A stretch of 64,000 bases of DNA from Candidatus Methanomethylophilaceae archaeon (GTDB lineage: Archaea; Thermoplasmatota; Thermoplasmata; Methanomassiliicoccales; Methanomethylophilaceae): positions 256,001-320,000 of the forward strand of contig CALUHR010000013.1 in NCBI GenBank assembly GCA_944320495.1. The letters run 5' to 3'. The translations under genes and the position numbers were made by a program. Below, one piece after another: positions 8,245-27,300 of this stretch. The notes under the pieces are model-generated. The model saw only the letters and a program-made list of their open reading frames with translations, was not told where the DNA came from and ran no database searches. How positions within the stretch are numbered: the stretch's first letter is position 1; the number at the start of each line of letters is the position of its first letter.

Positions 8245-8876
8245 TCCTCCACCTCACCCTTTCCCTTGAGGTGTTTGAGACGGGTGGTGTTCTCGCGGTC
8301 CATCTCCTCGAGACGGAACTTGACGAACCTCTCCGACTCCTTGAGCTCGGGGATTATCTTGAACTCAAGGGCGTTGACACGCCTCTTGGTCTTCTCGATC
8401 TCGTCGAGCAGCTTCTTCATGGTGGTCTCCACCTCGGCGGCGCGGACGAGCGTGTCGAGAAGCTTCTCGAACGCCGCTGCGGCCTCCTCGATGTAGGCGG
8501 ATGTCGAGATCACACCATAGCCTTTGTCGAGCATGCTGGTGTGGATCCTCTCGGCCTCGACCTTGGGGACCATCATTCCCATGATGCTCTTGCTCCCGAG
8601 CTTGACCTGCGGGTCTGCCTTGAGGGCGTACGCCGCGCTCTTCACGGCGATCTCTCCCTCGACCGCTCTGGCGATGGTGATCTTCTCCATTGCCGACTCG
8701 TAGTCGGAGGAGACGCCCTCACGCATCTTCCTCGCCTTCTCCAGGACCTCGAAGAACTCGATGATGAGGCCGTCCCTCTTCATCTTCAGGATCTTGTACC
8801 CTCCCTGGGAGAGCTTGATCCTCTTCTTCAGGTCCAGGAGGACGGAGCGGTTGGGGGTGACATCGTGTGCGGCCAT
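8241..8876 (-). CDS. atpD: A/V-type ATP synthase subunit D
   Basis: VTPNRSVLLDLK...ILKMKRDGL...KTKRRVNALEFKIIP. Confidence 0.97.
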   Translation of the reverse strand: MAAHDVTPNRSVLLDLKKRIKLSQGGYKILKMKRDGLIIEFFEVLEKARKMREGVSSDYESAMEKITIARAVEGEIAVKSAAYALKADPQVKLGSKSIMGMMVPKVEAERIHTSMLDKGYGVISTSAYIEEAAAAFEKLLDTLVRAAEVETTMKKLLDEIEKTKRRVNALEFKIIPELKESERFVKFRLEEMDRENTTRLKHLKGKGEVEE

Positions 8877-8880
8877 GGGA

Positions 8881-10269
8881 TCACTTCTTCGGCAGGTACT
8901 TCTCGATGTACTTGCGGTCGATCCTGGTCAGCTGGTCGAGGTCGAGCTCGGTGAAGATCTCCCATCCGATATCGAGGGTCTCCTCGATCGAACGGTCCTC
9001 GTCGATGCCCTGGCGGACGATGCGGTCCTCGAAGATGTCGGCGAAGTCCAGGAGCTTCCTGTCCTTGGCGGAGAGGGAGTCCTTTCCGACGATGGCCACG
9101 AGTCCGCGGAGGTCCTTACCCTCGGCGTAGGACGCATAGAGCTGGTCGGAGACCGCCTTGTGGTCCTCACGGGTCTTGCCCTTTCCGGTTCCGCCTCCCA
9201 TCAGCCTGGACAGGGACGAGGAGACGTTGACCGGCGGGTAGATACCGTTCCTGTGGAGCTCCATCGACAGAACGATCTGACCCTCGGTGATGTAACCGGA
9301 GAGGTCGGGGATCGGGTGGGTGATGTCTCCGCCGGGCATGGTCAGGATGGGGATCTGGGTGATGGAACCCTTCTTGCCCTTGATCCTTCCCGCACGCTCG
9401 TACAGCTGGGCGAGGTCGGTGTACATGTAACCGGGGTAACCGCGCCTTCCGGGCACCTCCTCACGGGCCGCTCCGATCTGACGGAGGGCCTCGCAGTAGT
9501 TGGTGATGTCGGTCATGATGACCAGCACCTGCATGCCCAGGTCGAACGCCATGTACTCCGCGGTGGTGAGACCGAGACGCGGGGTGAGGGTACGCTCGAC
9601 GGCGGGGTCGTCGGCGAGGTTCAGGAAGACGACGGCGTTCTTCAGAGCGCCGGTCCTCTCGAACTCCTTCATGAACATCTGCTTCTCTTCGTTGGTGATA
9701 CCCATGGCGATGAACACCACAGCGAACTCCTCGTTCTCGCCGCGGACCTTGGCCTGCCTGGCGATCTGAAGGGCCATCTCGTTGTGGGGGAGACCGGACT
9801 GCGAGAAGATCGGCAGCTTCTGTCCCCTGACGAGGGTGTTCATTCCGTCGATGGTCGAGATTCCCGTCTGGATGAAATCGGACGGGCTGTCCCTGGCCCA
9901 CGGGTTGATGGCGGCTCCGGTGATGTCGACCTCCTTCTCGGGGACGATCCTGGCTCCGCCGTCGAGGGGCTCTCCGGCTCCGGAGAGAACCCTTCCGAGC
10001 ATGTCCTTGGAGACGGGCATCTTCATGGTCTCGCCGAGGAAGCGAACGGACGCATCCCTGTCGACACCGGAGGTGCCCTCGAAGACCTGGACGACGACGA
10101 TGTCGTTGGACGAGTCGAGGACCTGTCCCCTCCTCATGGTACCGTCGGACATCCTGATGTTGACCATCTCGTAGTAACCGACGGGCTCGGTGTTCTTGAC
10201 GTACACCAGAGGTCCGGCGATCTGGGAGATCGTCTTGTACTCTTTGGATACTTCTGCCATGTGAATCAC
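8881..10269 (-). CDS. atpB: A/V-type ATP synthase subunit B
   Basis: [23 protein letters not shown]; [19 protein letters not shown]. Confidence 0.98.
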
Positions 10270-11996
10270 ACTCCCAGCTCGGCGAACTGCTTGTCCATGT
10301 CCTCGCTGACGGCCTGAAGCTCGGCGTCGATGTTCTCCTCGTACTTGGCCTGGTTGAACCTGGACCTGACGGGGAGGTACGCGATCTTGTCGACCTGGAC
10401 GCCGGCCGCGAGGGCCTTGTCGGACAGGTCGGAGTACTTCTTGATCAGGCCGAGCATGACGTGCTGCCTCTGGATGGGGCAGTAGCAGTCCACGGGGTGG
10501 TACGCATTCTGCTGGAGGAAGATCTCACGGATCATCTTGGCGACCTCGAGGGTCATCTTCTGCTCGTCCGGCAGAGAGTCGGAACCGACCATCTGCACGA
10601 CCTCCTGCAGCTCGGACTCCTTCTGGAGGACCTGCATGGCCCACGCCCTGAGGGTGGGGAAGTCCTCGGCGACATTGGCCTTGTACCAGTCGACCAGCTG
10701 TTTGTCGTACATGGTGTACGAGGTCAGCCAGTTGATGGTGGGGAAGTGACGCCTCTCCCTCAGCTTGGTGTCCAGCGCCCAGAAGACGCGGACGATACGG
10801 AGGGTGTTCTGAGTGACCGGCTCGGACAGGTCTCCTCCGGGCGGGGAGACGGCTCCGATGACGGAGATGGATCCGTCCTCTCCACAGAGGGCCCTTGCAC
10901 GGCAGGCACGCTCGTAGAACTCGGACAGACGTCCGGCGAGGTACGCGGGGTAACCCTCCTCACCGGGCATCTCCTCGAGCCTGGAGGAGATCTCACGCAT
11001 GGCCTCGGCCCACCTGGAGGTGGAGTCGGCCATCAGCGCGACGTTGTATCCCATGTCGCGGAAGTACTCGGCGATGGTCATGCCGGTGTAGACGGACGCC
11101 TCACGGGCCGCCACAGGCATGTTGGAGGTGTTGGCGATCAGGACGGTCCTCTTCATCAGGGACTCGCCGGTCCTGGGGTCCACCAGCTCGGGGAACTCTG
11201 TCAGAACCTCGGTCATCTCGTTTCCGCGCTCGCCGCATCCGATGTAGACGACGATCTCGGCGTCGGAGTACTTGGCCAGGGACTGCTGGGTGACGGTCTT
11301 TCCGGTACCGAACGCACCGGGGATGGCGGCCGCACCTCCCTTGGCCAGGGGGAACATCGTGTCGAGGACACGGAGTCCGGTGACCAGGGGGACATCCGGC
11401 TGGTACTTCTCGGCGACGGGCCTGGGGACACGGACGGGCCAGTGCTGGCACATCGTGACCTCTTTGCCGTCGATGACGGCGACGGTCTCGTCGACGGTGA
11501 AGGATCCGCTCTTGATGGAGTCGATCTTTCCCTTCTTGATGTCGATGGGGACCATGATCTTGTGGACCATGGGCCCCTCCTGGACGGTACCGATGACCTG
11601 TCCAGCGGCGACCTCGTCTCCGACGTTGGCGACGGGGACGAAGTCCCATTTCTTCTCGTGGTCAAGACCGGGGGCGGAGACTCCGCGGTAGATGAAGTCT
11701 CCCATCTTCTCCCTGAGTACGGGCAGGGGCCTCTGGATTCCGTCGTAGACCGAGGTCAGGAGACCGGGTCCGAGCTCGACGGACAGGGGTTTGCCCGTGT
11801 TGGTGACGGGCTCACCAGGTTTGATACCGGACGTGTCCTCGTAAACCTGGATGATGGAGTAGTCGCCGATGATCTTGATGACCTCACCCATCAGCTGCTC
11901 CTTGCCCACGTGCACGACGTCGTACATCTTGGGGGAGATGCCTGTGGCGGTCACCACGGGTCCGGCGACCCTGTAGATTACACCTTCAGTGCTCAT
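10266..11996 (-). CDS. atpA: A/V-type ATP synthase subunit A
   Basis: Walker A GAFGTGKT; GCGERGNEM; [12 protein letters not shown]. Normal length, no intein. Confidence 0.98.
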
Positions 11997-12302
11997 TTAT
12001 TCATCCTCTGATTTGTATAAGTCAACTCCAATCGCTCTCTTCACCTTCTCACGGAGATCGCTCTGATCCCCTCCGACCGGCACGACGACGGGCTGGATCG
12101 AATCCATGACCCTGTGCCTGACGGCGAAAGAGAGGTTGTCCAGATCCTTCGCGTCCACTGCGAGGATACCGATGTTGGGCTGGGACATCGCCTCCAGCAT
12201 TTTTTCCTGGTAGTTGTCTTTCTCAGCAACGAAGACGCGCCTGATACCGGCGAGCCTGAAGCCGAGCACGAACTCATCGCTGCCTATTACTGCGATCTCC
12301 AT
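11997..12302 (-). CDS. atpF: A/V-type ATP synthase subunit F
   Basis: MEIAVIGSDEFVLGFRLAGI...KVKRAIGVDL. Confidence 0.96.
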   Translation of the reverse strand: MEIAVIGSDEFVLGFRLAGIRRVFVAEKDNYQEKMLEAMSQPNIGILAVDAKDLDNLSFAVRHRVMDSIQPVVVPVGGDQSDLREKVKRAIGVDLYKSEDE

Positions 12303-13366
12303 CGGATCACCAGCAACCCTTTGATGGTGTCTGCGTCCAGTCCGCTCTCCACTCCCCTCGAGATGGTCCTGATGTTGCTGACCTCGATCTCCTTGTGGAT
12401 CATGTAGTCGATGATGGGGACCACCGACAGGGGGTACATGTGGGAGAACTTGTTCGCGGCGGCGATCTCGTACTTCTTCATCTCGGTGACGACCTCCCTG
12501 ATGCTCACCTTGTCGGATTCCACGAGTCCCTTGATGGAGTCGTAGAATTCGAGGCGGGACAGGTCGGAGGACGCGGCGGCGATGGTCTCCGCGTTGGCGA
12601 GCTGAGTCGCGTAGCGGGTGTCGATCTGCCTTCCCCCGGGGATGATGTACTTCATCACGACCTCGCCGTGGATCCCCTCCGCCTTGAGCTTGAGGATCGT
12701 CTCGAGGTTCTTGATGTCGATCTCCGTCCTGACGTAGTCCTGGAACATCCTGGTCGGCCTGGAGGTGGGGTTGATGCTCTTGACCAGCCTCACGTAGTGG
12801 GCCTTGTCCAGGTAGTCCTCGATCTCTCCCAGGTTCCCGGTCGACTTGTAGGTCGAGATGACGTCCTGGGGGATCGTGATGTGTTCCATCTTGTCGTAGT
12901 TCGCGATTATGTCTTCCACACTGTCGAGCGAGAGCAGCTTCTCCAGAGACTCGGAGTCCAGACTTCCGGCGGGGACCAGGTCCTCCCTGATTCCCTCGGG
13001 GTCAAGTCCGTACGACTTGCCGCGCAGGATGACCTTCAGGTTCCAGATGTCCCACTTCTCGAGGTACGCCTGGACCATGCCCTTGAGCTCTCCCTGGGAG
13101 GCCTGCAGGATGCTGCTGAACACCTTCGCCATGTTGGTGTAGGTGGCGTGCTCCACGAGGTCCATCCCCTCCAGCCTGCCGGCGAGGTCGGTCATCTCCT
13201 TCTGATAACCGGACTCGCTGATGTAGCGGGAGATCTCCGGGACGCTCATGAGCAGCATCTTGTTGTAGTCCTCGTCCTTGAGGAGAAGGGCCTTCTTGGC
13301 CTTCACCCTGGACACGGCATACGCGTAGTTGCCTGCCCTTCCGCTGCGGTTGAACATTGCTCTCAC
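12302..13366 (-). CDS. atpC: A/V-type ATP synthase subunit C
   Basis: GNYAYAVSRVKAKKALLL...DIWNLKVILRGK. Ends ...KGLLVI-CGA(12304-12302), overlapping the atpF ATG by 1 nt; standard-code end 12287. Confidence 0.95.
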
Positions 13367-16274: not shown

Positions 16275-16593
16275 TTAGGGTCCTCTCGAATTCATTTTTG
16301 AGAAAATCTTTGACTTCCTGCATTTTCGCCTCGGAGCCCTTGGTGAAGGTCTCGGCCTCCAGCCTGCCGGTGGCAAGCATGGACTCGCGCTTGACCTTCA
16401 GGTCGGCGGTCTCCTTGGCGATCGCGGATTCGTAAGAGCTGCGCATCTGAGCCTCAGCGTCCTGAATCTTCTTCACAGAATCCCTGCGGGATTCGGCGAT
16501 GGCGGACTTCTTGTCGGCCTCGGCCTGAGCGACCTTGGCGTCGGCATCCGCCTCCGCTTTCTTAATTTCCGAAAGTATGTCGATTCGGCTCAA
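16261..16593 (-). CDS. atpH: ATP synthase subunit H (peripheral stalk)
   Basis: First gene of the operon; ILSEIKKAEADADAKVAQAE coiled coil. TTG start 6 nt after GGAGTG (alternative GTG 16602). Codon 3 is CGA (see findings). Confidence 0.85.
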   Translation of the reverse strand: MSRIDILSEIKKAEADADAKVAQAEADKKSAIAESRRDSVKKIQDAEAQMRSSYESAIAKETADLKVKRESMLATGRLEAETFTKGSEAKMQEVKDFLKNEFERTLNVTS

Positions 16594-25728: not shown

Positions 25729-25952
25729 TCACCGATCTGGTACTTGACGGTGTGGTTGACGACCTGGTCCGCGGGGATCTCGGCGACATCGGTGATGTCG
25801 ATCTGCCACCTCTTCAGCTTGTGCTTGCTGCCGATGGTGGACAGGGCCTTCTCCTTGACGGCGGCCTCGTCCTCGGCGGCCATCTCGATGGAGAAGGGCT
25901 GCCTGATCTGCCTGGGGTCTGCGTAGTTGCCAGTGACACGGAATGCTTTCAT
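25725..25952 (-). CDS. rpl18a: 50S ribosomal protein L18Ae/LX
   Basis: MKAFRVTG...STIGSKHKLKRWQIDI; conserved rpl18a-pfdA-ftsY order. Confidence 0.92.
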   Translation of the reverse strand: MKAFRVTGNYADPRQIRQPFSIEMAAEDEAAVKEKALSTIGSKHKLKRWQIDITDVAEIPADQVVNHTVKYQIGE

Positions 25953-26070
25953 GGTGATTACCTTGCCGTGTGCAACCGCACCCCCTTAATAAAGGGTTCG
26001 CTCGCGCGTAATATAGCGGGCGCAGCGTCTTCGGAGGCCAGGATGTTGTCCGGACGAATGTGCCAGACCA

Positions 26071-27300
26071 TCGGAAAAGCCTCTGTCTGCCCGCCTCCTC
26101 CGATGCGAATCCGAAATCGGCCATCTTCCTGCCTATGAGGAACACGGCGGCGAACTCGGGGACCTCCGTCTCCCCCTCCAGGGAGAAATGCTCCCCCTTC
26201 ATGTCCAGCTTCGCGGGCCTCCTCATCGTGATCTTCACAGGGTCGTCGGAGTAAGCGTCAGGCACTGCCATCTGCAGGGGGTCGAAATCCGTGAGCTGGT
26301 CCCTGGTGATGGGGGTCACGCGGAGCCCGCTCTTGCCGTGGACGGACCCGGGGAGGCGTATCAGCCTCTTGATGTCCGCCGTGACCGGCTCGTCCACCTC
26401 GCCCGAGAGTCTCGGTGCCATGTCCTCGGCCATGATCTTCACGAGGATGTTCTGGGTGGACGTGGACAGCATGGCCATGGTGTTCCTCTCGAACAGCCTG
26501 GTCCTGGCGCCCTTCAGCTCCTCCTGGGCCTTGTAGACGGTCTTGATGTCGCTGCCCTTGATGCTGGGGTACTCGCGTTTGAGCTCCTTCCCGTCCCCGT
26601 CGCAGAAGTCGTTGACGACGTCCATGAGGCCGTGGCGCATTCTCAGCCTCCATCCTCCCGCATCCGCGGGAGGGATCAGCCTGTCCTTGGCGACGTTGGT
26701 GCGCATGCCTGACCCCGTGACGACCTTGGACGTGGCGACCCTGTTGTAAGGGAAGACCCAGTCGATGTTGAGGCCGGACCCGGTGATGTAGTCCACGAGC
26801 TCGCGCCTCTCGTGCGTCCCTAGCTCCATGACGTCCGGCGTGCGGACGTGGGCGTGGTACCCCCTTCCGCCGGAGAACGTGATGTGGACCTGCTCCTCCG
26901 AGAATCCCAGGTCCCCGAGCAGGAAGGAGTCGACGAGGTTCATCATCTCCGAGCGGATCTGCCTGAGCATCTCCGCATAGGTCATGTTCGCGGCGCCCTC
27001 CAGGTGGTCGGCGTCCAGGTCGAAGATGAGCTCCGCCCCGAGCCACTCCTTCTCGTCCATGGTGGGGGCGTCCGGCTTGCGGTAGTATGACGTGGAGTAG
27101 TAGCTGTGCGCGGGGACGTTCCCCTGCATGTACCGGCGCAGCTCTTCGGGGCTGCTGAACGATAGGTGCCTCTGGACGTAGTTCCTGTCGAAGAACATGA
27201 AGCCGAACTCCCTGCGGGCGAACCTGTCTGGCACAATGGGACCGTCCGTCCGGTAGTACTTCTTGAACGCCTTGAGCATGAAGCGGGAGTTCGGGTCCAT
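26071..27300 (-). CDS. priS: DNA primase catalytic subunit
   Basis: REFGF, AELIFDLDAD, FSGGRGYH, DEPVTADIKRLIRLPGSVHGKSG. Ends ...RQRLF-CGA(26073-26071); in the standard code it runs to 25729 across rpl18a. Confidence 0.94.

Follow-up and report, generated by a model that had tools for sequence, protein, structure and literature searches.

The window, i.e. the whole stretch of 64,000 nucleotides that was analyzed, carries on its minus strand an operon encoding an A1AO ATP synthase with the gene order H-I-K-E-C-F-A-B-D, in which the genes I, K, E, C, F, A, B and D are supported by Pfam. The genes atpC and atpF are direct neighbors in this operon, point in the same direction and encode subunits of the same complex (Table 1). 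AtpC matches PF01992 with an E value of 4.9e-77 (260 bits, cut-off 29) and AtpF matches PF01990 with an E value of 7.2e-16 (58.7 bits, cut-off 23.5), and the solved structure closest to AtpC is that of the Thermus subunit C (1R5Z, E value 5.9e-14). Read directly, the minus strand from 12327 to 12275 is ...GGG TTG CTG GTG ATC CGA TGG AGA TCG CAG TAA TAG. This confirms what had been noticed in a previous sequence-only reading of this DNA, namely a CGATG at 12300-12304 in which the A belongs both to a CGA triplet in the frame of atpC and to the start codon of atpF. If CGA ends the gene, AtpC comprises 351 residues, from the ATG at 13357 to the Ile codon at 12305-12307. With genetic code table 11, the protein gains five residues (RWRSQ), ends at the TAA at 12289-12287 and overlaps atpF by 16 nt; the run-on then resides within codons 1-6 of atpF in a different frame, and its TAA is directly followed by TAG at 12284-12286. 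Hence, one criterion of a TGATG-type overlap, the canonical stop codon as terminator, is not met, as the triplet at this position is CGA and the first canonical stop is the TAA further downstream.

The sequence-only reading had also stated that the other junctions of the operon use ATGA or adjacent stops, which holds only in part. At the F/A junction a TAA is indeed followed by ATG without a gap, and the E/C and A/B junctions show GTGA overlaps, which become short gaps if translation of the downstream gene truly begins at its ATG, but the H/I junction is a 14-nt overlap and the I/K, K/E and B/D junctions are gaps of 22, 19 and 4 nt, respectively. Among the 136 arginine codons of the nine atp genes only two are CGA, the one at the end of atpC and codon 3 of atpH. 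The 5' stretch of atpH including this codon (TTG AGC CGA) is identical base for base in four further genomes (G049, G102, G034 and G038), i.e. across genera, and the CGA may serve, at the beginning of the operon, as a regulatory slow codon or as a site of read-through. Two long ORFs lie antisense to atpB and atpA, at 8761-10317 (+) with 518 aa and at 10461-12011 (+) with 516 aa; they are shadow frames typical of a genome with a GC content of 62%, which mislead gene calling by the longest ORF and inflate the apparent use of CGA.

Table 1. Positions of the features discussed in the text (window coordinates unless a locus or contig is named).
Feature	Position	Strand	Basis or remark
atpC CDS, A1AO ATP synthase subunit C	12305..13357	-	Pfam PF01992
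Shine-Dalgarno-like GGTGATCC, built from the last atpC codons	12304..12311	-	complementary to 16S 3' end ...GGAUCACCUCCU
CGA codon at ancestral atpC stop position	12302..12304	-	C at 12304 derived, T in relatives
atpF start codon ATG	12300..12302	-	base 12302 (A) common to ATG and CGA
Standard-code atpC run-on TGG AGA TCG CAG TAA (WRSQ + stop)	12287..12301	-	sequence read directly
atpF, subunit F, 101 aa	11997..12302	-	Pfam PF01990
atpH codon 3 CGA (TTG AGC CGA)	CGA 16585..16587; atpH start 16585-16593	-	conserved nucleotide alignment
PriS-like ORF (primase subunit) with CGA at relatives' stop	25729-26073	-	orthologue alignment
aRF1 gene	L108:1084-2316 = G000 C2:85936-87165	-	one in-frame CGA

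Conservation of the junction

For a comparison at the level of the order, 60 genomes were searched and the junction was extracted from 29 of them (the genome under study is referred to as G000). The junction reads TGATG in 22 of these relatives and TAATG in six, and in a single one TAA stands directly ahead of the ATG. AtpC ends in LLV[IVM] without any variation in length in all 29, and in all 29 atpF starts at the equivalent ATG, AtpF beginning with M-E/D-I-A-V. Similarly, all 19 other species of the genus have the sequence ...GGTGATC TGA TG, including the closest one, G102, which shares 89% DNA identity. Combined, TGATG or TAATG occurs in 47 of 48 other species and TAA immediately followed by ATG in the 48th, and the base aligned to position 12304 is T in every one of the 48. 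As only two of the 136 arginine codons in the atp genes are CGA and the aligned base is T in all of these species, the CGA at the end of atpC is beyond what chance would place there.

Outside G000, CGATG was found only in G107, which is identical over 301 nt (100%) and which, judged by this identity, is the same species in another assembly. Protein homologues were retrieved from a collection of 5.8 billion proteins. Homologues of AtpC at 87% identity or below have 350-352 residues, start with MF[NS]RSG and all end in LLVI, whereas all 15 variants listed in the species' own cluster (at least 90% identity) end in LLVIRWRSQ; these were seen on 90 or more contigs of the NCBI, Logan and ENA archives. 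A tail resembling RWRSQ is absent from every orthologue outside this species, be it in the order, in the genus or in the protein collection. The alignment thus gave what the sequence-only reading had predicted, TGATG or TAATG in relatives with an AtpC ending in LLVI, and orthologues with an RWRSQ-like tail, which would have refuted it, were not encountered. The T-to-C change at 12304 is hence recent, real and fixed in the species.

The assembly of G000 is a draft of 14 contigs with 90.6% completeness and a GC content of 61.6%. The draft state, together with the fact that the difference from the relatives amounts to a single base, might raise the suspicion that position 12304 is in truth a T and was sequenced or assembled wrongly. 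However, G107 as an independent assembly has an identical junction, the tail is present in all 15 listed AtpC variants from at least 90 public contigs with the identical base, and the genome-wide pattern described below is frame-specific, unlike a base-calling artefact, so that an error at this position can be considered practically ruled out. If CGA terminates atpC, the RWRSQ tail that is already found in the AtpC entries of public databases is spurious.

Shine-Dalgarno-like sequence and inferred translational coupling

The Rfam SSU model found no match to a 16S rRNA gene in the G000 assembly. The 3' end of the 16S rRNA was taken from G097, a member of the same genus, and from G034, in which this model located the gene; in both it reads ...GATGGATCACCTCCT. 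The T-to-C change at 12304 turns the terminal G.U wobble with the 16S rRNA into a G-C pair. The complementarity of GGTGATC(C), the sequence of the last atpC codons, to the 16S 3' end is part of the reason why the LLVI end of AtpC is conserved even at the DNA level.

Experiments in Haloferax and Escherichia coli have demonstrated that termination-reinitiation falls steeply with the distance between stop and start codon, and overlaps of -1 and -4 predominate while longer ones are far less common (PMC6728339; PMC10666635). If CGA terminates, the -1 geometry present in 47 of the 48 other species is retained at atpC/atpF; otherwise, the species has acquired an unusual -16 overlap along with an AtpC tail that is absent from its relatives. 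The latter would be the outcome of a plain loss of the stop codon, in which CGA is decoded as arginine by tRNA-Arg(UCG), AtpC carries a harmless RWRSQ tail up to the TAA at 12289-12287, and atpF is translated from its own strong Shine-Dalgarno sequence or by reinitiation across the 16-nt overlap. At the locus itself this remains conceivable: the tail is short, is closed by TAA TAG and could simply be tolerated, the mutation strengthens the pairing of the Shine-Dalgarno sequence as described above, and the H/I junction of the same operon already overlaps by 14 nt. On the other hand, AtpC shows no length variation at its end among 48 relatives, and long overlaps in the phase of the 16-nt overlap are unfavorable for coupling (PMC10666635). 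Because the read-through product is only five residues longer and closed by TAA TAG, the atpC locus alone cannot decide the matter.

Distribution of CGA in the genome

The genome was represented by a set of 1364 ORFs obtained with an iterative, home-made codon model rather than a validated gene finder; all nine atp genes were recovered in this set. A first set, in which the longest ORF wins, had yielded 11.6 CGA per 1000 codons and was discarded, as this value was an artefact of antisense shadow ORFs such as the one at 10461-12011 (+) opposite atpA. By decile of ORF length, the 1364 ORFs contain 404, 177, 71, 41, 10, 10, 24, 39, 79 and 291 in-frame CGA codons, while the distribution of CGC is flat; the excess at the 5' side is explained by the extension of ORFs upstream past their true starts. 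In gene cores CGA is used at 0.72 per 1000 codons as opposed to 34 per 1000 in the other five frames. CGA in the tail, defined as the last 40 codons or the last decile, occurs in 212 of the 1364 ORFs (about 15%). Over the 20 codons that precede the first tail CGA, the coding log-odds average +0.29 per codon, and they fall to -0.47 from there to the canonical stop, in contrast to the control codons CGC, AGG, GGA and CCC, for which values of +0.5 before and +0.4 after the codon were obtained. The tails that follow CGA exceed 40 codons in 29% of the cases, and their median length is 17.5 codons compared to 28 in the control. These shorter tails could mean that read-through matters, or they could be an effect of ORF selection, in which the rule allowing ORF overlaps of at most 90 nt biases the comparison. 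Among the called ORFs of G000, 138 end in TAG.

The base at position +4 differs between the two kinds of gene ends: U follows 48.5% and A 8.8% of the terminal CGA codons (n=204), while the respective values for TGA stops (n=954) are 29.8% and 21.2%. The context is CGA-U at atpC, CGA-A at atpH and CGA-C in aRF1, and there may be an effect of the fourth base on termination at CGA. TG follows 23.5% of the tail CGA codons but only 6.9% of the TGA stops. With a downstream gene called at the respective ATG, 11 CGATG and 13 TGATG junctions were counted. A preferential conversion of TGATG to CGATG was considered and is not claimed, since the numbers are this small and six of the 11 CGATG cases are CGA-TGA, i.e. 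ATGA overlaps. These six gene pairs of G000, in which the ATG of the next gene lies within CGATGA (e.g. C3:173680-174267 (+)), can be read in either of two ways, with CGA as the last codon before an ATGA overlap or as a stop that is backed up by TGA.

Ends of orthologous genes

The 3' ends of orthologues were compared using 361 kb of G049 and 252 kb of G102, both from the same genus. CGA lies ahead of the canonical stop of the G000 gene in 26 of 191 pairs with G049 and in 17 of 107 pairs with G102, and it falls exactly at the end of the relative's gene in 10 of the 26 and seven of the 17 cases. The canonical stops coincide in none of the 26 and in one of the 17 CGA pairs, compared to 94 of 164 and 56 of 86 ordinary pairs. 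When close anchoring was required, a CGA of G000 was positioned on the stop of the relative 12 times and the reverse was never observed, while all other one-base neighbors of stop codons together accounted for eight cases over six codons. One example within the window is the PriS-like ORF, whose CGA aligns exactly to the stops of G049 (...KKLF*) and G102 (...QKLF*); according to the standard code, the protein would be extended by 113 codons that run across the neighboring gene. Apart from codon 3 of atpH, no genuine mid-gene CGA was present in the sampled orthologue alignments (for G049, 291 ORFs with a match), and each apparent mid-gene case that was inspected could be traced to a CGA at the gene end followed by a long tail, to an ORF over-extended at its 5' side or to an ORF that is spurious.

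Change of TGA to TGG was looked at as a parallel type of stop loss and rejected, as the inspected TGG cases either belonged to antisense ORFs that are spurious or corresponded to a TGA within a G049 reading frame. At C11:4851-5780 (+), a TGG of G000 corresponds to such an in-frame TGA, beyond which 130 codons of good coding sequence follow; the TGA of G049 could be a selenocysteine codon, the mark of a pseudogene or an error in G049. Loss of stops by mutation alone would predict TGA-to-TGG about as often as TGA-to-CGA, which is not seen in these alignments. Assuming that CGA is nothing but an arginine codon therefore leaves unexplained about 200 gene ends with TGA-to-CGA, while TGA-to-TGG and other stop losses are unseen in real genes, as well as the collapse of the coding signal after CGA, and it would burden many proteins with more than 40 junk residues, PriS being a case in point.

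As judged from the genome sequence, three criteria for a sense-to-stop change are fulfilled: CGA is nearly absent from conserved sense positions, with the exception of aRF1 Arg78 and atpH codon 3, it is found on the stops of orthologues, and the coding signal ends there. The reading of CGA in place of a stop, which had been implied for atpC before any comparison was made, is supported by these genome-wide tests, with the reservation that termination itself is inferred from DNA only.

tRNA-Arg(UCG) and release factor aRF1

The gene for tRNA-Arg(UCG) is present in G000 and folds into a cloverleaf (L070:1501-1574 (+), corresponding to G000 C13:413317-413390), and orthologues were identified by a covariance model in G049, G082, G034 and G038. 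An initially suspected absence of tRNA(UCG) from the genus was dismissed, as a BLAST-type search had missed the gene in G049 and G082, whereas the covariance model found it in all genomes checked. Differences were observed in the 31-39 pair of this tRNA: other genera have C31-G39, which closes the anticodon stem, along with C32 and A38, whereas the pair is broken in the genus, whose members have C31.A39, and G000 has the mismatch A31.A39 along with U32 and C38. In total, ARAGORN predicted 45 tRNAs in G000, among them none for Trp or Tyr, which probably contain introns, and no tRNA-Pyl.

In aRF1 of G000 the NIKS and YxCxxxF motifs are unaltered. An alignment of 22 genomes revealed a single change specific for G000 and G107 at an otherwise invariant column, a Gly-to-Ser substitution in RGR[G>S]TELIS. 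We regard this site as the counterpart of the eRF1 GTS loop, an element involved in the discrimination of stop codons. G102, however, has CGA ends without the Gly-to-Ser substitution. The gene encoding aRF1 contains exactly one in-frame CGA in 22 of 22 genomes of the family, which is located at Arg78 in 19 of the 20 genomes of the genus, at Arg25 in G094 and G034, and at Arg11 in G038. Arg78 is an invariant arginine, and the CGA is kept at this position.

CGA cannot be an absolute stop, because the conserved in-frame CGA codons of aRF1 and atpH have to be decoded. Both this decoding and the presence of the tRNA-Arg(UCG) gene would also be expected after a mere loss of the stop codon. Given the conservation of CGA in aRF1 and atpH and the retained tRNA gene, CGA is probably a leaky or context-dependent stop. 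To our knowledge, no release factor is known to accept a stop codon whose first base is not U, and direct recognition of CGA would therefore be without precedent. This difficulty would disappear if the C at 12304, and likewise that of other terminal CGA codons, were deaminated to U in the mRNA so that UGA is restored, a process by which plant organelles make UGA from CGA; editing of this kind would account for the equivalence of CGA and TGA at gene ends, and no release factor would have to accept C as the first base. Yet we know of no C-to-U editing of mRNA in archaea, and the CGA codons of aRF1 and atpH would have to escape it, which makes this explanation highly improbable.

CGA usage across the family

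In-frame CGA is very rare in the family as a whole. Outside the genus, CGA is used in frame at 0.45 (G038) and 1.4 (G034) per 1000 codons; within the genus it has been purged, and in G049 mid-gene usage is close to zero. The share of gene ends with CGA amounts to 2 of 191 (about 1%) in G049 with a GC content of 54.6%, to 8 of 107 (about 7%) in G102 with 58%, and to about 15% in G000 with 61.6%. On the basis of these genomes the pattern looks like the disappearance of a codon followed by its reappearance at stop positions under GC pressure. If CGA does terminate, the graded series within this lineage makes codon capture under GC pressure directly observable.

Interpretation

Taken together, the CGA at 12304-12302 is probably a working, though possibly leaky, terminator of atpC, and the site is probably the conserved TGATG overlap rewritten as CGATG. 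A loss of the stop codon with arginine inserted at CGA remains possible but appears unlikely to us in view of the genome-wide pattern. In the proposed course of events, CGA has been purged from gene interiors in the lineage and now acts as a further signal for termination, probably a leaky one that depends on the context, and a recent T-to-C transition in the species has converted the overlap. AtpC would then continue to end in ...LLVI, with the ribosomes terminating directly over the atpF ATG and immediately past the Shine-Dalgarno sequence GGTGATCC, and the coupling of atpF to atpC by termination and reinitiation across one nucleotide would be kept. A minority of the ribosomes may read CGA by means of tRNA-Arg(UCG), add RWRSQ and stop at the TAA TAG located 13 nt into atpF. 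While the geometry of the junction, its conservation, the fixation of the change and the genome-wide statistics are observed, termination at CGA, the factor responsible for it, which may be aRF1 or a stalling and rescue process, and the coupling are inferred.

Going further, we are on balance inclined to regard CGA as a fourth, context-dependent stop codon, at which aRF1 would compete with a weakened tRNA-Arg(UCG), which would be favored by U at position +4 and tuned by the in-frame CGA of the aRF1 gene, and which would have replaced UGA at atpC/atpF without loss of coupling. The genome-wide evidence suggests that CGA itself ends translation in this gut methanogen, a change of the genetic code that has not been established in any free-living cell. 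If true, a sense codon would for the first time have become a stop in a free-living organism, and for the first time a stop codon would lack the initial U; a cellular genome would violate the rule that stop codons begin with U, and another explanation would have to be found for recognition by release factors. Annotation by the standard code would then be wrong for roughly one gene in six, in this species and its relatives, resulting in C-terminal extensions and long overlaps that are not real and in run-on ORFs. The atpC/atpF junction offers a clean site for a test, as it resides in the genes of an abundant and essential complex, the end of AtpC does not vary among 48 relatives, and the C-terminal peptides expected from the two readings differ by five residues.

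Comparison with known systems

The arrangement at atpC/atpF resembles the pairs coupled by a 1-nt overlap of the TGATG or TAATG type (Huber et al. 2019, PMC6728339; 2023 follow-up, PMC10666635) in that the two genes run in the same direction and contribute subunits to one complex, the terminator's last base doubles as the A of the downstream ATG and the Shine-Dalgarno sequence is part of the final codons of the upstream gene; conservation of the overlap, moreover, extends throughout the order. It differs in its terminator, as CGA is not canonical and table 11 yields an overlap of 16 nt, and coupling at this junction is an inference.

The single in-frame CGA of the aRF1 gene brings to mind the bacterial RF2 gene prfB, which is autoregulated via an in-frame stop codon and a +1 frameshift at UGA. 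As in prfB, a release-factor gene possesses a single early in-frame copy of the relevant codon, in this case in 22 of 22 genomes of the family. Passage at the CGA of aRF1, in contrast, would be read-through by tRNA-Arg and not a frameshift, and a function of this codon has not been demonstrated.

Sense codons that have become stop codons are known from organelles (NCBI tables 2, 22 and 23), i.e. AGA and AGG in vertebrate mitochondria, UCA in Scenedesmus and UUA in Thraustochytrium. Similarly to these codes, a former sense codon vanishes from the genes and reappears at gene ends, but here this concerns CGA in a free-living archaeon with about 1,400 genes, which has kept the gene for the cognate tRNA and in which a few conserved sense CGA codons remain. 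A search of the literature yielded no paper that connects CGA stops with Methanomassiliicoccales. Reassignments of arginine codons in prokaryotes comprise CGA and CGG to Trp or Gln and AGG to Met (Shulgina and Eddy 2021, PMC8629427), and CGA has been put forward as a possible stop in two Njordarchaeales assemblies, which is so far untested speculation (bioRxiv 10.64898/2026.04.02.715157). Common to these cases and ours is that a rare arginine codon of the CGN type is driven to near zero and then acquires a new meaning, and that the archaeal CGA has a dedicated tRNA(UCG). Unlike the former reassignments, which lead from sense to sense in genomes of low GC content (PMC8629427), the GC content is high here (61.6%) and the codon reappears at stop positions.
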